A stretch of 64,000 nucleotides of DNA from Promethearchaeota archaeon (GTDB taxonomy: Archaea; Asgardarchaeota; Lokiarchaeia; Sigyniarchaeales; SOKP01). The position numbers were made by a program, and so were the translations under genes. How positions within the stretch are numbered: the stretch's first letter is position 1; each line of letters starts with the position of its first letter. Shown in pieces: positions 14,766 through 53,902 of the stretch. Location of the stretch: contig JBHLNT010000006.1 in NCBI GenBank assembly GCA_048941265.1, positions 6,987 through 70,986 on the forward strand. Direction: 5' to 3'. Under the pieces are notes generated by a model. That model ran no database searches, was not told the DNA's origin, and saw only the letters and a list, made by a program, of their open reading frames with translations.

Positions 14766-15845
14766 TCAAACCCCACGTAAATAGATGAAATCGCTGAATT
14801 CATTAAAAAATTCCTTTTGCTCTCTATTAAGGTCGGGATAAATATCTCGTAAAAATTCTTTGGCTTCCTGTACTAAATTTTTACTAAAATGCTCTGCTAT
14901 TATAATAGCATTGGTTTCAGCAAAAATTTTCATAACTTCATTAAGATCGCTTTTGGTTAGTTCCGGTTTTCTATATATTTCATTTAAGATTCTTGATTGG
15001 TCCTCATCTGTATTTTGTACAGCTAAAATATAGATAAATTTTTTCTTTCTGTCTTTTATATCATTCTCTATATCGAGAATATCATCACGTATAGCATGAG
15101 CCTGACCTATTCTTAACATGGCTTCAGATAAAGGTTTTATCTGGTAATGTATATTTCCTCTTGCTAAAATAGCTCCAATTTTAGTAGATTTTTCTAAAAC
15201 TCTTGCCCTTTGCATTTCAGCAATGGACAGATATTGTTCTAAAGTCATTGTAATATTATGATATTCCATATATTCTTCAATAATCATACCTTTCATTAAA
15301 TAATCCATTGCTTCAGAATACTCATTTATTGCTAATAGTTTTTGTTGATCCGGGAATTTAGAAGATCGAATTATGTCCAATCCAGTAATATAACCAAGAG
15401 AGCCTCCAAGAATACTTAAATCCCGTCCATATAGTTTAGTTAGTTTTTCCTTATCAGACATATCAAATGCTTTATAGACTTTATTAATTTCATTCTGCAA
15501 TTGTTTATGGAAAGCTGGTTCTCCCCTTCTCATATCATCATTATCTATTAAATCATCATGAATTAAATGCCCGCTGTGAAGAAACTCTACTGCTATAGCC
15601 ACTTTTCTTATTTCCCTTACATTTTCTTCTAAATACATTGGATTAATAATGCCATTAAACGCAGCAACTAAAAGAATAGGATGGATACGTTTAGCTTTGC
15701 TTTTTTCTGGTATAATGAAATTTTTCATTTGATTATTGAAATCGGCAAAAAGGAGCTCTTTTTCTTTTTTATTAAGTTTATCAAAAAATTTTTCTAATTC
15801 TAAATTAATCGCTTCTCTTTCAGAGTTAAAGAATTCTTCAATCAT
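14766..15845 (-). CDS. Polyprenyl (geranylgeranyl-type) diphosphate synthase
   Basis: The first Asp-rich motif is HDDLIDNDDMRRG and the second is RDDILD. Confidence 0.8.
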   Translation of the reverse strand: MIEEFFNSEREAINLELEKFFDKLNKKEKELLFADFNNQMKNFIIPEKSKAKRIHPILLVAAFNGIINPMYLEENVREIRKVAIAVEFLHSGHLIHDDLIDNDDMRRGEPAFHKQLQNEINKVYKAFDMSDKEKLTKLYGRDLSILGGSLGYITGLDIIRSSKFPDQQKLLAINEYSEAMDYLMKGMIIEEYMEYHNITMTLEQYLSIAEMQRARVLEKSTKIGAILARGNIHYQIKPLSEAMLRIGQAHAIRDDILDIENDIKDRKKKFIYILAVQNTDEDQSRILNEIYRKPELTKSDLNEVMKIFAETNAIIIAEHFSKNLVQEAKEFLRDIYPDLNREQKEFFNEFSDFIYLRGV

Positions 15846-23893: not shown

Positions 23894-24211
23894 TTACTCA
23901 TTATCATGGAAATCTATGCTACTCTTTGATTCTTCAGTATCTCTCTCTGATCCTTCTTTGGTGTATACCCCAATATATTTCTCTCCGGGCCATTTTGTAT
24001 TTACAATAATGCCAGATATAACTAAAATAGCAAAGATCACAAAATATGGAATTAAACTACCAGTAGGAAAAAATGACAAAAGAACGTCGACCCAAGATAC
24101 CATCCAAGCACCAATAGGTGTAACAAAAGGTTGTAATACTCTTAATATTAATCCAATAATATCTGCTATAATTTGTAAAAATTCAATCCTCTCATATTCT
24201 TGGAACCACAT
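23894..24211 (-). CDS. Small membrane protein
   Basis: 105 aa with 2-3 hydrophobic helices and an acidic C-terminal tail. Confidence 0.5.
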   Translation of the reverse strand: MWFQEYERIEFLQIIADIIGLILRVLQPFVTPIGAWMVSWVDVLLSFFPTGSLIPYFVIFAILVISGIIVNTKWPGEKYIGVYTKEGSERDTEESKSSIDFHDNE

Positions 24212-24226
24212 TTAAATACCCTCCTT

Positions 24227-24745
24227 TTATTTTTTCCCTCTCTCATATTTAATTTTTTCTCGATTTACAACAAAATCAACAAGATCATATGCTTTTAAAA
24301 TCACCGTTAAAAAGTAAATCCCCATATAAAGTAATATCATTTGCTGCAGATTTACTGTGATAATACCTAAATCCACTAATTCGAATTCTATTTCTAACGC
24401 TCCAGAAAATTTATAACTCCAAAGATATAAACAGTTTAAGATAATCTGGATTAATGCAAATACGCCCCGTCTTACGGATTGTTTGGGGGCAGAATATGCA
24501 AAAAACGCCGTCCCAGAGATGATAAGCCCAAAAGCCCAAACATAAAACAATATTAGATTGACTTGATGTTTATAAGCCTGTAATTCAACCCCCTCAACAT
24601 GAATCGTTTTTATCCAAGAAAAAGTCCAAAAAGGGATAAGTACAGTACTAGTGAAATATATCGCAGCTATTAAGGTTCCTCTAATAATATTTTTAATTTT
24701 AGCATTCTCTAATTGCTTAATAACTCTATCCTTAGTAAAACTCAT
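24227..24745 (-). CDS. Membrane protein (4-5 TM)
   Basis: 172 aa and hydrophobic throughout. Tightly spaced with its neighbours on the same strand. Confidence 0.55.
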   Translation of the reverse strand: MSFTKDRVIKQLENAKIKNIIRGTLIAAIYFTSTVLIPFWTFSWIKTIHVEGVELQAYKHQVNLILFYVWAFGLIISGTAFFAYSAPKQSVRRGVFALIQIILNCLYLWSYKFSGALEIEFELVDLGIITVNLQQMILLYMGIYFLTVILKAYDLVDFVVNREKIKYERGKK

Positions 24746-24748
24746 CTT

Positions 24749-25315
24749 TTATGTCACCTTCTCCTCAAATCCTCCTAAATCCATATCCTCTATATGTGCT
24801 TCAAATGAAATTAATCCCATGGAGTATTTAGCTGAGATATTTAATTCTTTTGCTTCAAAATCAAAAACGGGATCCCTTGTCAGATCTGCATTCAGAGCAA
24901 TATCGGTAAAATTTATATATTCTATATCATCTTTATCGATGGAAATTTTAAATTTTTTGCTCTCTCCAGCGGGGATGGTTGCAAACGACTTCTTATCTTC
25001 ATAGAGTTTCACTCCGGTTGAAACATTTCCGCTAGCTGTAACTCGATCATACACCAAATTTAATATTAACTCGACTTTTAGATCTTCCAAGTCAAAATAC
25101 CCCAAATTATTAATTTCAAATTCAACGTTAATCTCAAACGTATTAGGATCAAGAAATGGATTTCCCTCGTAATCCACATCAACATTAATATTTTTTTCAT
25201 TGGTTAATATGAGTGCCGCAGAATAGCCTCCTAAAAATGATACAAATGACATTGATGAAGCTAATATAAAGAGGAAGATTCGAACAATTAATCGAAAGAT
25301 TCTTTCTGGTCTCAT
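24749..25315 (-). CDS. N-terminally anchored beta-rich protein (LEA_2/WHy-like, tentative)
   Basis: An N-terminal TM helix is followed by alternating beta-strand patterns (NVDVDYEGNPFLDPNTFEINVEFEINNLGYFDLEDLKVELILNLVY). Confidence 0.4.
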   Translation of the reverse strand: MRPERIFRLIVRIFLFILASSMSFVSFLGGYSAALILTNEKNINVDVDYEGNPFLDPNTFEINVEFEINNLGYFDLEDLKVELILNLVYDRVTASGNVSTGVKLYEDKKSFATIPAGESKKFKISIDKDDIEYINFTDIALNADLTRDPVFDFEAKELNISAKYSMGLISFEAHIEDMDLGGFEEKVT

Positions 25316-25521
25316 AATTGTTCTCCTAAATTCTTTTTATAATTTTCATTTATTTTTATAAAATTTTATAGGTAAATATGATTAACACAATTATAGACTT
25401 TCATCTATTAAAATTTATATTTTTTCTAATTATTATAGAATGAATATTTTGATGTTTATACCCAAATGATTTCGGTTAAAATATAATAGTAAATAATAAA
25501 AAAAATGGTGTTAAATAAAAA

Positions 25522-25556
25522 GAAAACGGACGCAACCGCAAATCACTAATCTTCTA
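25522..25556 (-). promoter_or_regulatory. Candidate SECIS-like 3'-UTR hairpin downstream of 25593-25961
   Basis: RNA sense is UAGAAGAUUAGUGAUUUGCGGUUGCGUCCGUUUUC, a GC-rich island in AT-rich spacer 36 nt after the stop. It shares UAGAAGA...GAUUUGCGG..GCG.CCGUUU with the element at 26477-26510. Confidence 0.5.
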
Positions 25557-25592
25557 AAATTTATCAAGAATAGTTCATTTTTTTAAAAAAAT

Positions 25593-25961
25593 TTATGATT
25601 TTTCTATTTCCAATAAAAATGAGCCTTTATATTTGCCAAATAGTTTCCACGTTCTCGCGTTGATTTTAATATTGTTTGAATTGATTTCTAATTCATTTTT
25701 CAGATTTTTATCAATATACACTTCAAAACTATTAGTTCCAACATCGATTTGTTTCCACTTTTCAAAATGCGAATTCTTAGCAATTTTAGGTTTCTCAATT
25801 AATTGAACGATATCACTGCAGAAAGTTCCAGATCAAGATCTCGTAAAATACCTATAAATAACAAGTACTAACTCATCTAATCCATCTTTTTTAAGATATT
25901 TATTTTGTTTTTCCTGCAGTAAATTAAAGGCTTCTTCTGAAATTTCTAAATTTATAAATAA
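25593..25961 (-). CDS. HesB/IscA-like small protein with in-frame TGA (candidate Sec); no canonical start, so it may initiate at ATA 25955 or be a pseudogene
   Basis: One frame reads (L)FINLEISEEAFNLLQEKQNKYLKKDGLDELVLVIYRYFTRS[TGA 25833-25835]SGTFCSDIVQLIEKPKIAKNSHFEKWKQIDVGTNSFEVYIDKNLKNELEINSNNIKINARTWKLFGKYKGSFLLEIEKS. It is colinear with 26535-26915 and 26078-26422. TTA occupies the position of the paralog's TTG start. Confidence 0.5.
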
Positions 25962-26077
25962 TCACCCGTTCTTTATTCTATTATTGATTTGAATTGTTTT
26001 TTATATATAAATAAAGGAGAGTACTAAAAAAAATATGGTTTATATTTTAAAATTTCGAAAAAAAATTTATTTATAAT

Positions 26078-26422
26078 TTATCTTTTTTGCTCCTTTAAAA
26101 TAAGAGAAACATATTCCTCATGAAATTTCTTAGTTATTTGTATATCTATCAAAATTTCTGCTTTTTCTGGAAAATCACTTAATATTCTCTTTTCAATATA
26201 AATAGGAACAATAATACCATAACCATCATCGACTTCTCCATATTTTTCATAGGATGATGGGTCAATTTTTTCTTCTTTAAAATTCAACTCAAGAAAATAA
26301 TCTGAATATGAACCCGCACAAGCTTGTTTGCTAATTTGGTAAATAATGATCACAGGTTTTTCATTCTTAACCTTAATATTTTCACGAAGATAATCAATTG
26401 CTTCTTTTGTTAAAGAAAACAT
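26078..26422 (-). CDS. HesB/IscA-like small protein, Cys-containing paralog
   Basis: MFSLTKEAIDYLRENI...VIIIYQISKQACAGSYSDYFLELNF resembles the IscA/HesB N-terminal half (xITxxAxxxI ... GCSGxxY). It lacks the C-terminal CGCG motif. Confidence 0.6.
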   Translation of the reverse strand: MFSLTKEAIDYLRENIKVKNEKPVIIIYQISKQACAGSYSDYFLELNFKEEKIDPSSYEKYGEVDDGYGIIVPIYIEKRILSDFPEKAEILIDIQITKKFHEEYVSLILKEQKR

Positions 26423-26476
26423 CTTAAAATTCTTTTATTTAAATTTATTATATCTTTTTTTTTTTTGTTAATATAT

Positions 26477-26510
26477 GAAACGGTCGCTTCCGCAAATCGT
26501 TTTTCTTCTA
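26477..26510 (-). promoter_or_regulatory. Candidate SECIS-like 3'-UTR hairpin downstream of 26535-26915
   Basis: RNA sense is UAGAAGAAAAACGAUUUGCGGAAGCGACCGUUUC, 24 nt after the stop. It can fold as AAACG/CGUUU lower stem, asymmetric internal loop, UGC/GCG upper stem, and GGAA loop. Confidence 0.5.
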
Positions 26511-26534
26511 CCATTTTAAAGAAAAACTCATATT

Positions 26535-26915
26535 TTAACCATATACATCTTTTTGTTTCTTTATAAATAATAAACCAATTTGTTCACCGTTCAATTCCCC
26601 AATTGCAATATCGATAAATACTACTTTTTTTTCCTTGAATTCTGAGATCAAATCGTTTTCTATGTAAATTTCAATATCAGGGTTATCTTCAATCTCTTTC
26701 CATTGAAAAAAATTTTCCTTCTCATCAAGAACTTTATGCTTTTCCACCAATTCGATGACATTACCACAGAATGCCATCGTTCAATTTCCTCCAGAATAGT
26801 AAAAAATTGCTAGGACAAATTTATCTACCTGGTTCAATAACTCATTCTCTTCAAATGGTTTATTTTTATTGTTTATATAATCCAATGCTTTTTTTGAGAT
26901 TTGTATCTTAAACAA
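26535..26915 (-). CDS. HesB/IscA-like small protein with in-frame TGA (candidate selenocysteine at codon 45)
   Basis: TTG start at 26915 preceded by AGGTGG. It reads MFKIQISKKALDYINNKNKPFEENELLNQVDKFVLAIFYYSGGN[TGA 26781-26783]TMAFCGNVIELVEKHK... and continues into track ORF 26535-26777 in the same frame. The TGA aligns with Cys35 of the paralog 26078-26422. Confidence 0.65.
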
Positions 26916-27149
26916 AAACCACCTATTATAATACTTGAATAATTTATACTAGTGAAATTAATAGATAAATTTTTTCAAAAAGCTTTGGAATTCTCAATCT
27001 TTAAACATTAACTTCAAAAGCCAGAAGGATTTTTTTATGATCAATAATTACCAATACCATTAAGTAGAAATATCATTAGTTCTACATTTTTTTTAAAGAT
27101 TTAACAATAAACTGTTAAGTAAAAATTTAATTAAATTAGAGTGGAAATA

Positions 27150-30008
27150 ATGGATATAAACGCATATTCATTGGAAGTTCAAGATGTAGTTAACAAAATG
27201 GATACTTCATTGGAAACAGGATTATCGGAAAAAGAAGTAAATAGAAGAATTGAAGAATATGGTTTTAATGAGTTAAGAGAAACTAAAAAAATTTCAGCAT
27301 GGGAAATCTTTTTGAGTCAGTTTAAAGATTTTCTGGTTTACTTATTATTGTTTGCAATTGCTATATCCCTTATTGTTGGATTTTATGCACTCTCTGTTGG
27401 GGACGAACCTACTGAGTTCTTAGATGCTTTAGTAATTTTCATAATATTAATTGTCAATGCGGTTTTAGGATTTTATCAAGAGTATAAAGCTGAAAAAGCA
27501 TTAGAAAGCTTAAAAAGGATGGCCCCCCATAATGCTAAAGTTAAAAGAAATGGGATCATAAAAGAAATCGAGGTAAAAAATGTAGTGCCCGGAGATATCT
27601 TGCAATTGGATGAGGGCGATAAATTACCTGCTGATGCAAGGTTGACAAAAGCATATTCGTTATATATTGACGAAGCGATTCTTACTGGTGAATCTCAACC
27701 TGTTGGAAAAAATCTTAAATTAATTGAAGAAAAAACAATTCTCGCAGAACGTAAGAATATGGTATATAGTAATACAATAATTACTCGAGGTAACGGAGAA
27801 GCAATTGCTGTAGCAACCGGAATGCAGACAGAGATTGGAAAAATTGCTGAAAAAATTCAAGCAGAAGAACCTCAACCAAGCCCATTTCAAATTGAAGTTG
27901 ACCGTTTTGGAAAAACATTAGGAAAATTTATAATGATCATATGTTTTTTGGTTTTTTTAATAGAATTCTTTATAATCATATTAACTGAGGGTTTAGAATT
28001 TGGAAGGGAAGAAATTGATCATATAGTTGCCGCTTTAACGATAGCAATAAGTCTTGCAGTTTCTGCTGTACCAGAAGGATTAGTAGTTGTAATAACAGTA
28101 GTTATGAGTATTGGAATGAGAAAGATGGCAGATAGAAATGCATTGGTGAAGACTCTTACTGCTGTTGAAACTTTAGGACGGGTAAATATAATATGCTCAG
28201 ATAAAACAGGTACACTCACTAAAAATGAGATGACTATCGTAAAACTATTTCTCGGAGGAAATGAATATAATGTAGAGGGCGTGGGTTATAATATTGAGGG
28301 AAAAATTTTAAATGAATCTGGAAATACTGTGTCATTGGACTTACCCTATTTAAAGAGATTTTTAGAAGTAGGGAATTTTTGTAATAATTCAAATGTAATT
28401 GTTAATGAGGATGGAGTAAATACAGATGTTGTGGGAGACCCGACTGAGATCTGCTTTAAAATTTTAGCATTGAAAATGGGTCTTGATACAAAAGCTGAGA
28501 AGCTTAATGAAATCCCCTTTAGCTCTGATAGAAAAATGATGTCTGTTGCAATAAAAATCGATAATAAAATATATTCTTTTCTTAAAGGAGCACCCGATGT
28601 TTTATTAAAAAATGCAACAAAAGGACTTTATAATGGTGAAGAAAAACCAATTAAAGAGCTTATTGACACATTTCTTAAAAAAAATGAAGAGTATGGTAAG
28701 AATGCTTTAAGAGTATTAGGATTGGCATATAAACCGCTTAATGAAGTTTTTAATGAAGAAGATATGGAAAAAGATTATATATATCTCGGACTTGTAGGCA
28801 TTATTGATCCCGCTCGAGATGAGGTTAAAAAATCAATAGTTCAAGCAAGAATGGCAGGAATTCGAACTATTATGATCACAGGAGATCATAAAATTACCGC
28901 AATTGCGATTGCTAAAGAGATTGGTTTAACTGATTCCGATGATGCTATAACAGGTGCGGAGTTAGAGGAGATGTCGGATGAAAATTTAGCAAATCAGCTT
29001 CAAAATGTTGATGTATTTGCAAGAGTAACATCGGAGCATAAATTACGTATCCTTAAAGTCTTAAAGACTCAAGAAAATGTAGTTTCGATGACAGGTGATG
29101 GAGTTAACGATGCCCCCGCGGTAAAAGGAGCAAACGTTGGAGTTGCAATGGGCTTAAAGGGAACCGAAGTCACCCAAGAAGCGTCGGATATGATCCTTAT
29201 TGATGATAATTATGCTACCATTGTAAATGCGATCGAAGAAGGAAGGGGTATTTTTGAAACTACTAAAAGTTTCTTTAGATATATGTTAAGCGCGAATTTT
29301 GATGAAATAATCCTAATCTTAACAGCATGGATTCTTATGAAGCTTTTTGTTAATATTTATCTCGCGATACCCCTTGAACCTATACAAATATTATGGTTAA
29401 ATATTGCCACTGATGGTATTCCCGCGATGGTCTTGGGTTTAACTCCTACTGATCCTGATGTAATGAATTTTAAACCACGTAAAGGTTTTAATATGATTGC
29501 TGATATCAAGAAAGCTATTATATTTGTGGCTGTTTTTGCAGCTATTACTGATGTGGTATTATATGTTGTTTGTTGGTCAATTTTAATTCCTGCTTGGAGT
29601 GATCCAAATTCACCGTGGTATGATCCTCGTTTAGTCAATGGAACTACGATTTGGGGCGTGAAATATACAGCAGAGGAGTATCAAATTGGTGTAGTACAAA
29701 CGATTGTTTTTACTAATGTAGTCTTTTTCGAATTATTTTTTGTATTTTCATGTACTTCTGAATATAAACCAATGTGGGATTTCCCAAACAAACATTTATT
29801 CTGGGCCACAGCAATATCATTTGGATTACAAATTGCAATTTTATTTACACCACTTTGCATCGCATTCCACGCAGTACCGATGGATCGATGGTTTCACTGG
29901 TTAGCAATTTTTTTAGGTTCAATTTTTATTCTACCTGCGGAAGAAACAAGAAAATACTTTAAGAGAAGAAATCTTCAGAAAAGTCCACAAAATTTTGAGA
30001 TCTCATAA
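27150..30008 (+). CDS. P2-type (SERCA-like) cation-transporting P-type ATPase, copy 1
   Basis: TGES, PEGL, DKTGTLT, MITGDHKITA and GDGVNDAPA motifs plus 10 predicted TM segments. ATG at 27150 (the track uses GTG at 27141). Confidence 0.9.
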   Translation: MDINAYSLEVQDVVNKMDTSLETGLSEKEVNRRIEEYGFNELRETKKISAWEIFLSQFKDFLVYLLLFAIAISLIVGFYALSVGDEPTEFLDALVIFIILIVNAVLGFYQEYKAEKALESLKRMAPHNAKVKRNGIIKEIEVKNVVPGDILQLDEGDKLPADARLTKAYSLYIDEAILTGESQPVGKNLKLIEEKTILAERKNMVYSNTIITRGNGEAIAVATGMQTEIGKIAEKIQAEEPQPSPFQIEVDRFGKTLGKFIMIICFLVFLIEFFIIILTEGLEFGREEIDHIVAALTIAISLAVSAVPEGLVVVITVVMSIGMRKMADRNALVKTLTAVETLGRVNIICSDKTGTLTKNEMTIVKLFLGGNEYNVEGVGYNIEGKILNESGNTVSLDLPYLKRFLEVGNFCNNSNVIVNEDGVNTDVVGDPTEICFKILALKMGLDTKAEKLNEIPFSSDRKMMSVAIKIDNKIYSFLKGAPDVLLKNATKGLYNGEEKPIKELIDTFLKKNEEYGKNALRVLGLAYKPLNEVFNEEDMEKDYIYLGLVGIIDPARDEVKKSIVQARMAGIRTIMITGDHKITAIAIAKEIGLTDSDDAITGAELEEMSDENLANQLQNVDVFARVTSEHKLRILKVLKTQENVVSMTGDGVNDAPAVKGANVGVAMGLKGTEVTQEASDMILIDDNYATIVNAIEEGRGIFETTKSFFRYMLSANFDEIILILTAWILMKLFVNIYLAIPLEPIQILWLNIATDGIPAMVLGLTPTDPDVMNFKPRKGFNMIADIKKAIIFVAVFAAITDVVLYVVCWSILIPAWSDPNSPWYDPRLVNGTTIWGVKYTAEEYQIGVVQTIVFTNVVFFELFFVFSCTSEYKPMWDFPNKHLFWATAISFGLQIAILFTPLCIAFHAVPMDRWFHWLAIFLGSIFILPAEETRKYFKRRNLQKSPQNFEIS

Positions 30009-30223: not shown

Positions 30224-33082
30224 ATGACGATTAAAGAAGTATATCCTCATGCGATGGATATTAATGAAGTCGCAAAATCATTGGACACATTATTAAGCAC
30301 GGGAATATCAGACCAAGAAGCTGAGAAACGATTAGATGAATATGGTTTAAATGAATTAATCCAAAGAAAAAAAATCTCTCCGCTTGCTATTTTTATTGAG
30401 CAGTTTAAAGATTTTCTCGTTTATTTGCTATTTTTTGCAATCGGCATTTCGATAATTGTGGGCTTTTATGAACTTTCCAAGGGTGGATTTCCCTCAGAAT
30501 TCTTAGATGCCTTAGTTATTTTCATTATTTTAATTTTAAATGCAATTTTGGGATTTTATCAGGAATTTAAGGCGGAAAAATCCTTAGAAAGCTTGAAAAA
30601 ATTAGCCCCTCATTACGCTAAGGTCAAGAGAGGGGGAAAAATTAAACAAATCAGTGTTAAAGAAGTGGTGCCCGGAGATGTCATTCAACTAGACGAGGGT
30701 GAAAAAATACCTGCCGACGCTCGATTAACAAAGGCTTTCTCGTTATATGTAGATGAAGCTATTCTTACTGGAGAGTCAAAACCAGTTCATAAAAATTTAG
30801 ATTTAGTGGACAAAAAAACGATATTGGCAGATAGAAAGAATAGTATCTACAGCAACACTATAATAACAAGGGGAAACGGAGAGGCAATTGTTATCGCTAC
30901 AGGGATGCAAACTGAAGTTGGAAAAATTGCCGAAAAAATTCAAGAAGAAGAGCCAGAACCAAGTCCTTTTCAGCAAGAAGTTGATCGATTCGGAAGATTT
31001 CTTGGAAAAATGATTATGCTTGTATGTTTTCTCGTATTTGCTATAGAATTAGTAATTATTATAACCTTTGAGGGACTTAGATTTCAGGCAGAAGAAATAG
31101 AAGAGATTATAAATGCGTTAACAGTTGCGATAAGCCTTGCAGTTTCTGCCGTACCAGAAGGGTTGGTAGTAGTTATTACGGTTGTAATGAGTTTAGGAAT
31201 GAGACGAATGGCCGATAAAAATGCATTAGTAAAAACTCTTACTGCTGTTGAGACGTTAGGACGTGTAAACGTCATATGCTCAGATAAAACAGGAACATTG
31301 ACTAAAAACGAAATGACGGTCGTACGGATTTTTATCAATGATGAGGTCTATAAAGTTGATGGAGTAGGATATAATATAATTGGGAAAATCCTTGATGAAA
31401 ATAATAATGTAATACAAATGAATCTTAATCTGATGCGTTTTTTAGAAGTTAGTATGTTTTGCAATAATTCTAGTGTAAATATCATGAATGATGATGGTGA
31501 TACGGAAGTTGTGGGCGATCCTACAGAAATTTCGTTAAAAGTTTTGGCAATGAAAATGAATATAGCAACGAAAATAGAAAAAATCGATGAGATACCTTTT
31601 AACTCAGATAGAAAAATGATGACTGTTATCGCAAGAATTAATGGGGAATTATTTGCACTAATTAAAGGAGCACCAGATGTCTTATTGAAAAAAGCAAGTA
31701 AAATTTTATACCAGGATCAGGATGTACCAATAGAGAAAGCTGAAAAAATGATTTTGGAGCAAAATGAATATTTTGCAAAAGAAGCTTTACGAGTATTAGG
31801 AATAGCTTATAAACCTCTAATTGAAGGATATAATGAAGAAGAGGTTGAAAAAGATTTTATTTTCTTAGGTTTAGTTGGGATCATCGATCCTGCTAGAGAT
31901 GAAGTAAAAGGGTCTATAGAAGAAGCAAGAAATGCGGGCATCAGAACTATAATGATTACAGGAGATCATAAAATTACTGCAATTGCGATAGCTAGACAAA
32001 TTGGATTAACAGATAATGATGAGGCGATTACTGGGGCTGAATTGGAAGAAATGTCCGATGCTGAATTAGCGCATAGAGTTAAAAATACCGATGTTTTTGC
32101 AAGAGTAACTTCCGAACATAAACTTCGCATTTTAAACGCACTAAAAGCTGAACAAGATATTGTTTCCATGACAGGAGATGGAGTAAATGATGCCCCCGCC
32201 GTAAAAGGTGCAAATGTTGGAGTCGCGATGGGGCTTAAAGGAACAGAAGTTACCCAAGAAGCGGCAGATATGATCCTAATTGATGATAATTACACTACGA
32301 TCGTTAATGCTATTGAGGAAGGGAGAGGAATATTCGAAACTACTAAGAGTTTTTTTAGATACATGCTAAGTTGTAATTTTGACGAAATCATAATGATTTT
32401 AGTAGCATGGATTTTGATGAAAATTTATGTTAATGTTTATCTAGCTCAACCACTAGAAGCTATACAAATTTTATGGTTAAATGTTGCAACAGATGGAATT
32501 CCAGCAATGGTATTAGGATTAACTCCAACAGAACCTAATGTTATGGAACATAAGCCACGTAAAGGCTTTAATATGATTTCAGATATAAAAAAGGCAATCA
32601 TCTTTGCTGCAGTCTTTGCTGCAATAACAGATGTAGGATTATATGTAATAGTATGGTGGTTAATTAGAGGTCCTACAGGAGATGGGGGGATTTGGATGAA
32701 TATGGACCCCCGGCTAGTAAATGGAGCGACTTTCTGGGGAATTAAATATTCTGCAGAAGAATATCAAATAGCAGTGGCACAATCTATTGTTTTTACAAAT
32801 GTCGTATTTTTTGAATTATTTTTTGTATTTTCATGCACCTCTGAAAGTAGACCTGTATGGGAATTTCGAAATAAGCACTTATTTTGGGCCACTGGAATTT
32901 CATTCGCCTTACACTTATGTATTCTATTTACACCATTAGCTATTGCTTTCCATACAGTCCCAATGGATAGATGGTATCACTGGGCAGCTATCTTTTTAGG
33001 CTCAGTCTTTATAATTCCAGCTGAAGAAATGAGAAAATACTTAGTTAGACGAAAAAAAAAAGCAATGGAAATAATTTATTGA
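30224..33082 (+). CDS. P2-type (SERCA-like) cation-transporting P-type ATPase, copy 2
   Basis: Same motif set as copy 1 and colinear with it over the full length. Confidence 0.9.
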   Translation: MTIKEVYPHAMDINEVAKSLDTLLSTGISDQEAEKRLDEYGLNELIQRKKISPLAIFIEQFKDFLVYLLFFAIGISIIVGFYELSKGGFPSEFLDALVIFIILILNAILGFYQEFKAEKSLESLKKLAPHYAKVKRGGKIKQISVKEVVPGDVIQLDEGEKIPADARLTKAFSLYVDEAILTGESKPVHKNLDLVDKKTILADRKNSIYSNTIITRGNGEAIVIATGMQTEVGKIAEKIQEEEPEPSPFQQEVDRFGRFLGKMIMLVCFLVFAIELVIIITFEGLRFQAEEIEEIINALTVAISLAVSAVPEGLVVVITVVMSLGMRRMADKNALVKTLTAVETLGRVNVICSDKTGTLTKNEMTVVRIFINDEVYKVDGVGYNIIGKILDENNNVIQMNLNLMRFLEVSMFCNNSSVNIMNDDGDTEVVGDPTEISLKVLAMKMNIATKIEKIDEIPFNSDRKMMTVIARINGELFALIKGAPDVLLKKASKILYQDQDVPIEKAEKMILEQNEYFAKEALRVLGIAYKPLIEGYNEEEVEKDFIFLGLVGIIDPARDEVKGSIEEARNAGIRTIMITGDHKITAIAIARQIGLTDNDEAITGAELEEMSDAELAHRVKNTDVFARVTSEHKLRILNALKAEQDIVSMTGDGVNDAPAVKGANVGVAMGLKGTEVTQEAADMILIDDNYTTIVNAIEEGRGIFETTKSFFRYMLSCNFDEIIMILVAWILMKIYVNVYLAQPLEAIQILWLNVATDGIPAMVLGLTPTEPNVMEHKPRKGFNMISDIKKAIIFAAVFAAITDVGLYVIVWWLIRGPTGDGGIWMNMDPRLVNGATFWGIKYSAEEYQIAVAQSIVFTNVVFFELFFVFSCTSESRPVWEFRNKHLFWATGISFALHLCILFTPLAIAFHTVPMDRWYHWAAIFLGSVFIIPAEEMRKYLVRRKKKAMEIIY

Positions 33083-34454: not shown

Positions 34455-35534
34455 TTAAATCTCTTCAAATGTTTTAAAAAATAAGCCAATTCCTATAATT
34501 TTAAAAGTATCTTGTATATTTATATTATTTAAGGCAGAGGTTTCTATGAAAAAACAGCCTAATTCTTCGGATTTTTTCAGACCCTCTTCTTTAGAAACTT
34601 GTCTTTGGTCTTCTAAATCTATTTTATTTCCTATAAGAACAAAAGGTACGTTTCCTAATTCTTTACGAGCATCTTTATACCAGATATCTATAGCCTCCTC
34701 AAATGTCTTTCTTCGAGTGATATCATAAACCAAAAAAACACATTTCGCTCCAATATAATATTTATGCCTAATTAACTTAAAATATTCTTGACCTGCAATA
34801 TCATATATCAAGAATTTAATAAGTTCATTCTCAAAACCTTGAATATAATATTGTTGACTGGAAATTGAGATTCCTAAAGTGGGTCTATAATCTGAACTTT
34901 GCTTTTTCTGAAGAAAATTATTAACTAAGGTTGTTTTTCCAACCGCAGCAGAACCTAATACGATTAGTTTAAAAGCATGCCTTCTTGGTTTTTCGCTACT
35001 TATGCGATGTGTTAATTTAGCACTCATATTTAATGATTTTGACGGATCGACAGCATGACGATTCAATTCTAGGGAAAATTCACCGCTAATGTTTAAATCT
35101 GGAATTTTTAAACTATTATATTTAGGATCAAAACTATTTTCTAAAATTTGAGCAATTTTCTCCACGACTAGATATGCAATTGGAAAAAATTTATTTAAAT
35201 CTATATCAAGATTACAAACACATAATAAAATAGCTTCAGGACCAGACTCAAGATAAACAATTCGATTATTAGGAGTTTCAAATGAACCTGTGCCAAATTG
35301 ACCAATTTGATATTCTAATGATATCTTATTTAATAATTCTTCAATGGTTGCTGAAATTGGAGAATGAATCTCTTTTGATTTGATATCATTAATTTTATTA
35401 TTTAGTTTCAATTCGCCATATTTTGCGATTAATAGCCCTTGTCGTGAATAGAGAAAGACAATCTCGATATCGTTTCGTGCATCAATAAAATTCTTTAATA
35501 ATTGAGAAATTCTTTCTTGCTTTATAATTACCAT
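34455..35534 (-). CDS. Roadblock/longin-like domain fused to a Ras/Rab-like small GTPase
   Basis: The C-terminal G domain has GSAAVGKTT (G1), DIAGQE (G3), GNKIDL (G4) and ETSAL (G5). The N-terminal approx 140 aa show a Roadblock-like pattern (IEIVFLYSRQGLLIAKYG ... NRIVYLESGPEAILLCVCNLDIDLNK). Confidence 0.8.
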   Translation of the reverse strand: MVIIKQERISQLLKNFIDARNDIEIVFLYSRQGLLIAKYGELKLNNKINDIKSKEIHSPISATIEELLNKISLEYQIGQFGTGSFETPNNRIVYLESGPEAILLCVCNLDIDLNKFFPIAYLVVEKIAQILENSFDPKYNSLKIPDLNISGEFSLELNRHAVDPSKSLNMSAKLTHRISSEKPRRHAFKLIVLGSAAVGKTTLVNNFLQKKQSSDYRPTLGISISSQQYYIQGFENELIKFLIYDIAGQEYFKLIRHKYYIGAKCVFLVYDITRRKTFEEAIDIWYKDARKELGNVPFVLIGNKIDLEDQRQVSKEEGLKKSEELGCFFIETSALNNINIQDTFKIIGIGLFFKTFEEI

Positions 35535-52771: not shown

Positions 52772-53902
52772 ATGAAAATAATGTTTAATGATTTATCAAA
52801 GCAATGGAGCATCATAAAGGAAAATACTATGCCAAAACTACAATCTCTTTTCGAAAATTCTAATTACATTGGTGGTAGAGCCATTAAAGAATTCGAAGAT
52901 AATTTTGCAGCTTATTGTGGCACTGAATATGCAATAGGTGTTTCCAACGGAACAGATGCATTAAAATTATGCTTAGCAGCATTTCAATTAGAATCTCCTT
53001 GCGGCATTTTAATTCCTGCTAATACCTTTATTGCCACTGCATTAGCTGTTACTTACGTACCTGACTTGAATTATGAAATGATATTAGTGGATTGCGATAA
53101 TTATTATCAAATTGATGTAAAGTTATTAGAGTCATATTTAACAAAAAATAGGAAAAATTGGAAGACATGTGTTATAATTCCAGTTCATTTGTACGGTCAT
53201 CCATCAGATATGAAAAGTATACTTCAAATTGCAGAGAAATTCAATTGTTACATTTTAGAAGATTCGTCACAGGCCCATGGAGCAATGGTAATAAATAATA
53301 AAGTGGGAAGTCTAGGAGATATTTCAGCATTTTCCCTATATCCAGGTAAAAATTTAGGAGCTGCTGGAGATGCTGGTATTATAACAACAAATAGTGAAGT
53401 CTTAAATAATCGATTATTATCTTTAAGAAATTATGGTTCTAGTAAAAAATATTATTATGATATGAAAGGTTGGAATAATAGGTTAGATACGATCCAAGCA
53501 ATTATTTTAAACGAAAAATTAAAACATTTAGATAAATGGAATGATATGAGGATTAAAGTTGCGAAAAGATATGATGAATTATTCGAAAATAATGAGCAAG
53601 TTATTACCCCCAAGACGGCGCCTTACATTAATAAACAAGTTTATCACATTTATGCTATTCGAATAAAACAAAGAGAAGATTTTCAAAAATATTTACTTAA
53701 AAACAATATACCCACAATAATTCATTATCCTATTCCTATTCAAAAAACTAATCCATTTAAACATCTTGATATTTTTGATAATGAAAAAACCTTAAAATTT
53801 TCTAATGAATTAATTAGTCTACCAATGCATCCTTTCTTAAGGGAAGAAGAAATTAATTACATCACTCAAAAAATAAACGATTATTTTAAAAGGCAATTGT
53901 GA
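52772..53902 (+). CDS. DegT/DnrJ/EryC1-family PLP sugar aminotransferase, WbpE-like
   Basis: GGRAIKEFEDNFAAYCG, DSSQAHGA and SLYPGKNLGA (PLP Lys) motifs. Confidence 0.9.
   Translation: MKIMFNDLSKQWSIIKENTMPKLQSLFENSNYIGGRAIKEFEDNFAAYCGTEYAIGVSNGTDALKLCLAAFQLESPCGILIPANTFIATALAVTYVPDLNYEMILVDCDNYYQIDVKLLESYLTKNRKNWKTCVIIPVHLYGHPSDMKSILQIAEKFNCYILEDSSQAHGAMVINNKVGSLGDISAFSLYPGKNLGAAGDAGIITTNSEVLNNRLLSLRNYGSSKKYYYDMKGWNNRLDTIQAIILNEKLKHLDKWNDMRIKVAKRYDELFENNEQVITPKTAPYINKQVYHIYAIRIKQREDFQKYLLKNNIPTIIHYPIPIQKTNPFKHLDIFDNEKTLKFSNELISLPMHPFLREEEINYITQKINDYFKRQL

Follow-up and report, generated by a model that had tools for sequence, protein, structure and literature searches.

A tandem gene trio in a Lokiarchaeia genome: two candidate selenoprotein genes and their cysteine paralog

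The window analyzed here is a 64-kb stretch of a Promethearchaeota genome (contig JBHLNT010000006.1, Lokiarchaeia). Three colinear paralogs lie in tandem on its minus strand, and we refer to them as genes A (26915–26535), B (26422–26078), and C (approximately 25955–25593). Genes A and C are each interrupted by an in-frame TGA at the column where the uninterrupted gene B has a Cys codon. An earlier note on this DNA had read A and C as candidate selenoprotein genes, and our results support this reading. The TGA column is conserved among relatives, the sequence is coding on both sides of it, and a selenocysteine insertion sequence (SECIS) element is located behind A and C only. These SECIS elements had not been noticed in the earlier note. 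On the strength of the sequence evidence, we estimate a probability of about 0.9 that genes A and C do encode selenoproteins and that B is their cysteine paralog. Selenocysteine (Sec) would be inserted at the two UGAs by analogy with other Asgard genes, and the genome presumably encodes the Sec machinery.

Gene array and in-frame TGA codons

The array comprises the following features:

26535–26915, minus strand: gene A, candidate selenoprotein coding sequence of 126 codons; TTG start after AGGTGG, Sec codon 45, stop TAA 26537–26535
26781–26783, minus strand: proposed Sec codon of gene A, an in-frame TGA at the column of Cys35 in B; Cys at +5 (U-T-M-A-F-C)
26078–26422, minus strand: gene B, uninterrupted Cys paralog of 114 amino acids; Cys35 encoded by TGT 26320–26318; no +5 Cys and no downstream SECIS
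25593–25955, minus strand: gene C, candidate selenoprotein coding sequence of about 120 codons; frame open from 25961, stop TAA 25595–25593
25833–25835, minus strand: proposed Sec codon of gene C (about codon 41), an in-frame TGA at the column of Cys35 in B; Cys at +5 (U-S-G-T-F-C)

From TTG 26915, gene A runs through 44 open codons to TGA 26783–26781. The same frame continues through the listed open reading frame (ORF) 26777–26535, and every coordinate given in the earlier note was correct. Around its TGA, the product of gene C reads ...LVLVIYRYFTRS-TGA(25835-25833)-SGTFCSDIVQLIEK... The three products were aligned using MAFFT, with U written as C. They aligned end to end, and both TGAs fell on Cys35 of B. 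The alignment therefore bears out the proposed colinearity of A with B and the presence of a third copy with a TGA at the same column. The U-x4-C spacing described for both TGA copies was also recovered, with the Cys at +5 in A and C. Gene B is only 25–32% identical to the Sec forms A and C.

The public annotation of this locus is incomplete. At NCBI, B is identical to MFX1442208.1, a hypothetical protein (ACFFHV_02235) of a Promethearchaeota archaeon. Of gene A, the 80-residue tail alone is annotated (MFX1442209.1, ACFFHV_02240), and gene C is absent.

Conservation of the TGA column

We retrieved the DNA of relatives (loci L001–L012), which showed 66–84% DNA identity to the window. Locus L001 comes from the metagenome-assembled genome (MAG) LW40_45 (GCA_019058445) and displays the same A–B–C array and neighborhood, with 84% identity over 14 kb. 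The codon at the Sec column was TGA in 10/10 A-type copies, which stem from independent assemblies and span 66–84% DNA identity. It was also TGA in 9/9 C-type copies, including those of L008, L011, and L012, and TGT in all nine B-type copies. This pattern is far beyond chance. The terminal stops of the array genes were TAA or TAG at all loci. More than 12 independent assemblies carry these TGAs, which are therefore not the assembly errors that the earlier note had considered as a possible objection.

The pairwise nucleotide differences among the A-type copies were distributed over the three codon positions as 520/318/712 upstream and 835/366/1504 downstream of the TGA. The amino-acid identity of these copies was 0.59 upstream and 0.68 downstream. 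The C-type copies displayed the same codon-position bias, and the identities across the A and C types were in the ranges of 0.57–0.59 and 0.65–0.68 for the two segments, respectively. Conservation thus continues past the TGA, and the third-position bias does not collapse there. Extra stops or frameshifts were found at none of the loci examined, and no ortholog carried the two halves as separate genes or stops at random positions. The conserved TGA, the coding evolution upstream of it, and the lack of other stops exclude an assembly error, random-stop pseudogenes, and two independent small genes.

Of the 39 open frames in the window that span 200 codons or more, five are closed by TGA, among them the second P-type ATPase and the gene that ends at 53900–53902. 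Because ordinary window genes end in TGA, the code is not globally reassigned, as the earlier note had already argued from the latter gene.

Public protein entries are affected by the Sec column as well. In 'full-length' entries of the A and C types, W stands at this position (P0002–P0008, P0017, P0023, and P0044–P0059 are among the affected or fragment entries). In 3/3 entries checked (P0003, P0007, P0023), this W corresponded to TGA in the DNA. It arose because metagenome gene callers used genetic code 4 on AT-rich contigs. About half of the family's clusters are fragments that begin just past the Sec column (MAFCGN...).

SECIS elements behind genes A and C

Published Lokiarchaeota SECIS elements lie near the end of the coding sequence. 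They consist of an AUGA, a 9-bp stem, an 11-nt loop that is A-rich at its start, and a GA after the stem; the last G of the loop is conserved and is usually preceded by A (PMC4989117). The 3′ untranslated regions (UTRs) of A and C agree with this description in position, AUGA/GA core, stem, and loop:

26476–26535, minus strand: SECIS of gene A; AUGA (26531–26528), then GUUUUUCUU, UAAAAUGGUAG, AAGAAAAAC, and GA
25522–25582, minus strand: SECIS of gene C; AUGA (25578–25575), then ACUAUUCUU, GAUAAAUUUUAG, AAGAUUAGU, and GA

The A element starts about 250 nt past the UGA and shares its first base with the end of the stop codon. Its 3′ part contains UUU and a small hairpin, GCGG-AAGCGA-CCGU, and the element is flanked by the lower stem AUAU/AUAU. 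The C element is likewise located about 250 nt downstream of its UGA. It has UUU followed by the hairpin GCGG-UUGCGU-CCGU, and its lower stem is formed by an A-run and a U-run. The AUGA begins 4 nt past the stop codon in gene A and 15 nt past it in gene C. Distances of 30–500 nt between UGA and SECIS have been reported for Asgard genes (PMC9723677), and the spacing found here falls within this range. The 21-nt motif GATTTGCGGnnGCGnCCGTTT occurs in exactly two copies in the window, one behind A and one behind C, each 40–50 nt past the stop; gene B has no copy behind it.

The 9-bp stem has no mismatch in the A element and one in the C element. The apical loop comprises 11 nt in A (UAAAAUGGUAG) and 12 nt in C (GAUAAAUUUUAG), the latter being one above the published definition. 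Loops end in G in 16/16 cases and in AG in 15/16, the A-type loop of L010 ending in UG. Among the 14 orthologous elements, the core before the stem is AUGA in 12, GUGA in one (L003), and AGGA in one (L009), and the GA is invariant. In the A-type elements, the AU of the AUGA is apparently taken up into the lower stem. The AUGA...GA core is expected to form a kink-turn. The small 3′ hairpin contains three G:C pairs and is flanked by GAUUU(N) and (N)UU.

A strict descriptor of the element matched exactly twice in 128 kb (both strands), at the A and C sites. The number of matches expected from second-order Markov randomizations of the window was 0.02. We also built a covariance model from the 14 orthologous elements of the other loci, leaving the window sequences out. 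The model scored 80.1 bits at the A site (E = 1e-17) and 74.4 bits at the C site (E = 2.5e-16), and the next best match in the window reached 16.8 bits. In the other loci, it matched solely behind genes of the A and C types. Behind gene B, no SECIS was detected in any locus, whether with the descriptor or with the covariance model. Pairing was observed for 93% of the element cells, as compared with 42–61% when the 3′ partners were slid; for the 9-bp stem, the share was 94%. Compensatory changes occurred at four upper-stem pairs (C-G/U-A, A-U/U-A twice, and A-U/G-C/G-U), and the observed covariation score was reached in none of 500 shuffles. The lower stem covaries too, for example from AUAU/AUAU to ACAU/AUGU in L008.

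Other interpretations of the 3′ regions were tried and rejected. In euryarchaeal SECIS elements, a GAA_A bulge separates the long lower stem from a G:C upper stem of 3 bp (PMC4989117). This Methanococcales-type bulge is not present in the A or C elements, and the GCGG...CCGU hairpin was accordingly not accepted as a euryarchaeal-type SECIS. The same hairpin as part of a novel 'composite' SECIS was dismissed as well, since the known SECIS elements of Prx-like genes (PrxL) in the sister MAG bear an equivalent. For gene B, a decayed SECIS was considered on the basis of a loose 3′UTR alignment. However, the conserved AUUUUAAAAUAUAAAC block of this region lies at variable distance from the B stop, and it is matched by neither the descriptor nor the covariance model. 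The block itself is a separate feature:

26038–26053, minus strand: conserved AUUUUAAAAUAUAAAC motif in the B–C spacer; present in all loci, at varying distance from the B stop

This motif is probably the TATA/B recognition element promoter of gene C. A further descriptor match, with an AA core, was found at 15490–15541 (minus strand; AUGA, UAUGAGAAG, GGGAGAACCAG, CUUUCCAUA, AA). It lies inside the long ORF 14766–15845 and its loop is G-rich, not A-rich. With 0.09 such matches expected per window, we set it aside as most likely a chance occurrence.

Known selenoprotein genes of the lineage

For the sister MAG GCA_019058445, the supplement of PMC11227280 lists SelD, FrhA, and Prx-like genes that contain Sec, and we observed the TGA in two PrxL genes of this MAG. 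A Prx-like group with the motifs GGW-U-VY-U and GAW-U-KPC was examined in L035, which belongs to the same MAG as L001, and in six metagenome contigs. The descriptor used for A and C matched directly after each gene of this group. The L035 PrxL element reads AUGA, GGCAAAUGU, AAAAACUUUAG, ACAUUUGCU, GA-C-(AUCCU-AGCCA-AGGAU)-UAAGG, where UAAGG pairs with an upstream CCUUA. The PrxL and A/C elements thus have a common layout: lower stem, AUGA, upper stem, GA, small 3′ hairpin, and lower stem. Since the known PrxL elements carry a 3′ hairpin, the GCGG...CCGU hairpin is part of the normal design.

The lokiSECIS, a type I eukaryotic SECIS-like element (PMC4989117, PMC11227280), shares with the A/C elements the 3′UTR site, the AUGA/GA core, the 9-bp stem, and the A-rich loop ending in AG. 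The A/C sequence is family-specific, and the A/C covariance model does not match the PrxL elements. The 12-nt C-type loop (instead of 11 nt) and the core variants of L003 and L009 also depart from the lokiSECIS. SBP2 has not been found in Asgard archaea (PMC4989117).

We made some additional observations on Prx-like genes. Loci L036–L041 (e.g., L036:1000–2240) contain tandem Prx-like selenoprotein genes, one with two Sec residues (GGW-U-IH-U) and the other with U-KP-C. Each has its own SECIS, and the public annotation splits each of them into pieces of 53 and 86–104 amino acids. In MAG LW40_45, a canonical Lokiarchaeota SECIS is located at L035:848–890 (plus strand; AUGA, GGCAGACGU, AUAAAAUAUAG, ACGUAUGCU, GA), about 150 nt upstream of the Prx-like gene. 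Its position implies another selenoprotein gene that ends just ahead of it. A further Prx-like group, 'U_2' (motif S/N-U-P-Y/F-C), was found at 21 loci (L013–L033) of Promethearchaeota and other Asgard MAGs, with the TGA kept. Its 3′UTR structure differs from the canonical Lokiarchaeota SECIS (e.g., L032:1984–2068, L014:1975–2059). The lower stem, UGAUUUGG/CCAAAUCA, starts inside the stop codon, and the element contains an 11-bp hairpin with a long A-rich loop ending in ...AUGAG, and then a second small hairpin. There is no AUGA/GA pair around the stem, and neither the descriptor nor the covariance model matches it.

Protein family and fold

A word-indexed search yielded 42 clusters for the family, and HMMER against 1.84 billion representative proteins yielded 49 clusters at E values up to 0.001. 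The family is small and appears confined to Promethearchaeota/Lokiarchaeia MAGs and sediment metagenomes. Among 26 diverse members, the Sec/Cys position is the sole invariant column. In the A and C clades, the Sec is always accompanied by a Cys at +4 to +6, which the Cys-type B clade lacks.

We obtained AlphaFold models for B (predicted local distance difference test, pLDDT, 86.6; predicted template modeling score, pTM, 0.79) and for an A-type homolog (pLDDT 86.1, pTM 0.79). Both show a single alpha/beta domain, in which the Sec/Cys is placed in the turn between two long strands (residues 24–34/37–47 in B, 29–39/44–54 in the A-type homolog). As this central hairpin spans the Sec column, the domain needs both halves of the split ORF. 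Foldseek comparison with the PDB matched the B model to IscA (1R94, 1S98), which ranked first, and the HesB-like protein 2P2E, and the A-type model to SufA (2D2A). The probabilities of these matches were 0.97–1.0, and every other match remained at or below 0.33. The models thus support an IscA/SufA (HesB)-like fold for the A/B/C family. The HesB/IscA likeness that the earlier note had seen in these proteins stood at the level of the fold; Pfam did not report it, and the NCBIfam matches remained below cut-off.

The sub-threshold NCBIfam matches converge on one superfamily. NF041239, 'CC/Se motif family (seleno)protein', was matched by 5/26 members (best E = 2.6e-8; cut-off 40 bits), and NF038090, 'IscA_HesB_Se', by 3/26 (best E = 0.0095; cut-off 85 bits). 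Among the window proteins, the scores were 13.3 bits for gene A with NF041239 and 12.7 bits for gene B with NF038090. The HesB-like selenoprotein family TIGR01911 was matched by one distant member, P0043 (22.1 bits, E = 1.8e-4; cut-off 66.35 bits), and by none of the three window proteins. Faint matches to SufA and TIGR00049 were also obtained. An hhalign comparison was made with the E. coli IscA sequence, identical to 1S98. The local, non-significant match placed the invariant Sec/Cys on IscA Cys35. Sequence-based profile searches of the PDB returned neither IscA nor anything else of relevance.

The TIGR01911 HesB-like selenoproteins of bacteria and Methanococcales resemble A and C in being single-domain proteins of about 90–120 residues with an IscA/HesB-type fold and one Sec at the HesB Cys. 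Cys-containing homologs occur in both families. The Sec motif of TIGR01911 is UxGP (PMC13188914, Table 1). The corresponding segments are U-T-M-A in A, U-S-G-T in C, and C-A-G-S in B, none of which contains Pro, and Gly is present at +2 in B and C only. The A/C motif is instead U-x4-C, the SECIS is eukaryote-like and not of the euryarchaeal or bacterial type, and A/B/C is apparently restricted to Lokiarchaeia/Promethearchaeota metagenomes. The A/B/C family is a distant relative of the Methanococcales/bacterial HesB-like selenoprotein family and not a member of it. NF041239 and NF038090 describe small (seleno)proteins of the same superfamily, to which the window proteins score about 13 bits.

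The A-type Fe-S carriers IscA and SufA (1R94, 1S98, 2D2A) were the sole meaningful fold matches of both models. Unlike these carriers, A/B/C have the first Cys ligand only, in the form of Sec/Cys, and lack the C-terminal Cys-x-Cys. The C-termini (…LILKEQKR, …KKQKDVYG, …LEIEKS) contain no Cys. The absence of the CxC ligands argues against a classical A-type Fe-S carrier role.

Evaluation of alternative explanations

Several results weigh against the proposal that A and C are selenoprotein genes with a HesB-like product. Gene C has no ATG, GTG, or TTG ahead of its TGA in the window, and no tRNA is present within the 64 kb. Rfam, which may not include an Asgard SECIS model, gave no SECIS match, either at the gathering score for the window or at E values up to 10 for 25300–27100. 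The number of independent covariation events is small, because most double changes separate A-type from C-type elements. The fold matches are modest (template modeling score 0.45–0.60, E about 1e-3). Pfam returned no HesB/Fe-S_biosyn (PF01521) match at E values up to 10, hhalign against E. coli IscA was not significant, and all NCBIfam matches were below the curated cut-offs. The gene neighbors offered no clue to the function of A/B/C. The Sec/Cys at the hairpin tip may be a reactive residue, which we propose with low confidence from the motif and the fold.

Decay of the genes would make the TGAs nonsense mutations in decayed or split copies of A and C, from which the 80-residue tail or nothing would be produced. 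The NCBI annotation, which holds that tail of A and nothing for C, and the missing canonical start of gene C in the window are in line with this scenario. It is, however, difficult to reconcile with a column that is TGA, and never TAA or TAG, in 19/19 copies despite 16–34% DNA divergence. Moreover, the part upstream of the TGA evolves as coding sequence without other stops or frameshifts, the predicted single-domain fold requires both halves, and each TGA gene is followed by a conserved SECIS. Decay is largely refuted by these findings, and we regard it as extremely improbable. The UGAs might instead be read as Trp, Cys, or Gly, through local or global reassignment or near-cognate suppression, with the 3′UTR structure serving mRNA stability or termination. 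Several public gene calls do place W at the TGAs, and the lack of an Rfam SECIS match would fit. Yet TGA ends ordinary genes in the window, which shows that the code is not reassigned, and the column is Cys in every B-type paralog, a classic Sec/Cys pair. The 3′UTR element fits the published Lokiarchaeota SECIS, the same element stands behind the Prx-like selenoprotein genes of the sister MAG, and this sister genome is a documented Sec user (PMC11227280). A standard amino acid at the UGAs is therefore very unlikely.

A narrower scenario retains gene A as functional and regards copy C in this genome as a recent, unexpressed pseudogene that arose through a start-codon mutation. The 5′ end of gene C (window 25953–25964, minus strand) reads TGA TTA TTT ATA AAT..., and no ATG, GTG, or TTG separates the upstream in-frame TGA from the Sec codon. 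The orthologs carry ATG (L001) or TTG (L002, L004, L005) at the equivalent place. On the other hand, ATA and ATT are usable as weak start codons, and a Shine–Dalgarno-like GGGTGA is located 6 nt upstream of ATA 25955–25953, which is likely the start of gene C. Copy C is otherwise intact in its ORF, its Sec TGA, and its SECIS, and the SECIS score of 74.4 bits is on par with those of the orthologs. Gene C may be translated from the ATA in this genome, perhaps with poor initiation, or its expression may be weak or absent. We consider the pseudogene scenario unlikely, and the reading of both A and C as selenoprotein genes is preferred.

Gene neighborhood

The array is surrounded by two P-type ATPases, three small proteins without a Pfam match, a flavin mononucleotide reductase, and a radical S-adenosylmethionine enzyme. 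The three small genes (23894–25315, minus strand; 188, 172, and 105 amino acids) are located directly downstream of the array on the same strand. The 188-residue protein has a hydrophobic N-terminus. The trio holds its position in L001, L002, L008, and L010, and may be functionally linked to the array or may share an operon neighborhood with it. The tandem P-type cation ATPases (27141–30008 and 30224–33082, plus strand; 955 and 952 amino acids) share about 73% DNA identity with each other. They are oriented divergently from the array and are kept beside it in L001, L008, L010, and L012. TGA is the stop codon of the second ATPase. Further away, 34455–35534 (minus strand) encodes a protein of 359 residues whose C-terminal domain is a small GTPase of the Ras/Roc/Arf type, as is typical of Asgard genomes, and the L001 ortholog is found in the same place.

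Discussion

Taken together, the data are consistent with the following mechanism. Genes A and C would each be transcribed with their own 3′UTR, which would fold into a Lokiarchaeota-type, eukaryote-like SECIS with a lower stem, an AUGA...GA core, a 9-bp upper stem, an 11–12-nt A-rich loop ending in AG, and a small 3′ G:C hairpin. By analogy with other Asgard genes, the SECIS would direct the archaeal Sec-specific elongation factor and Sec-tRNASec to the UGA. The UGA (codon 45 of A, approximately codon 41 of C) would then be decoded as Sec, and translation would proceed to the UAA. The predicted products are proteins of about 120 residues with a single IscA/SufA (HesB)-like domain and the Sec/Cys at the hairpin turn. 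The Sec may act as the nucleophile in a site for redox chemistry or for chalcogen/metal handling, and could be resolved by the +5 Cys as a selenenylsulfide. The clade-specific occurrence of the +5 Cys suggests either a selenenylsulfide redox couple or a two-ligand chalcogen/metal site.

Pairs of Sec- and Cys-paralogs within one genome occur in Methanococcus, in the form of the Fru/Frc and Vhu/Vhc isoforms. In the A/B/C array, by contrast, B shares only 25–32% identity with the Sec forms and has no +5 Cys, and the whole trio has stayed in tandem across diverged genomes. The divergence of B and its missing +5 Cys indicate that it does not simply back up the Sec forms to spare selenium. A hetero-oligomeric site would be possible given the IscA-like fold and the three diverged paralogs in tandem. 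The Sec–Cys–Sec proteins might assemble in the manner of IscA/SufA proteins, and an Fe-S(e) cluster, a metal, or a chalcogen might then be ligated jointly by the hairpin-tip selenols and thiol of different subunits. We regard this arrangement as quite unlikely. It is much more likely that A and C represent a new, Asgard-restricted selenoprotein family beyond those listed up to 2026.

Surveys of Asgard archaea describe seven or eight selenoprotein families: SelD, FrhA/VhuU, HdrA, FrhD/VhuD, Prx-like, AhpF-N-like, and DsbA-like (PMC11227280; PMC13188914). For archaea overall, eleven families are listed, and within the archaeal lineages that it covers, a 2026 review does not give a HesB-like family for Asgard archaea (PMC13188914). 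Mariotti et al. (2016) reported five Lokiarchaeota families and, from a SECIS-based search that covered two metagenomes, no others (PMC4989117). Huang et al. (2024) analyzed more than 400 Asgard genomes through homology to known families and listed seven (PMC11227280). The A/C family escaped both searches, and our full-text literature searches did not find it for Asgard archaea or Promethearchaeota. The Sec mechanism and HesB-fold selenoproteins were already known. What is new is a family that misses the curated thresholds and the motif of every known family and is associated with a eukaryote-like SECIS.

At the level of annotation, the genes are truncated (80 residues), omitted, or translated with UGA as Trp under code 4, which implies that Asgard selenoproteomes are undercounted and that protein databases hold artefactual W residues at Sec positions. 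For the organisms, the proposed family would add two more selenoproteins per genome in a Lokiarchaeia clade, and would extend the HesB/IscA-fold selenoproteins to the Asgard lineage, together with a eukaryote-like SECIS. The array would also provide a natural Sec/Cys/Sec paralog triplet for the study of Sec retention.

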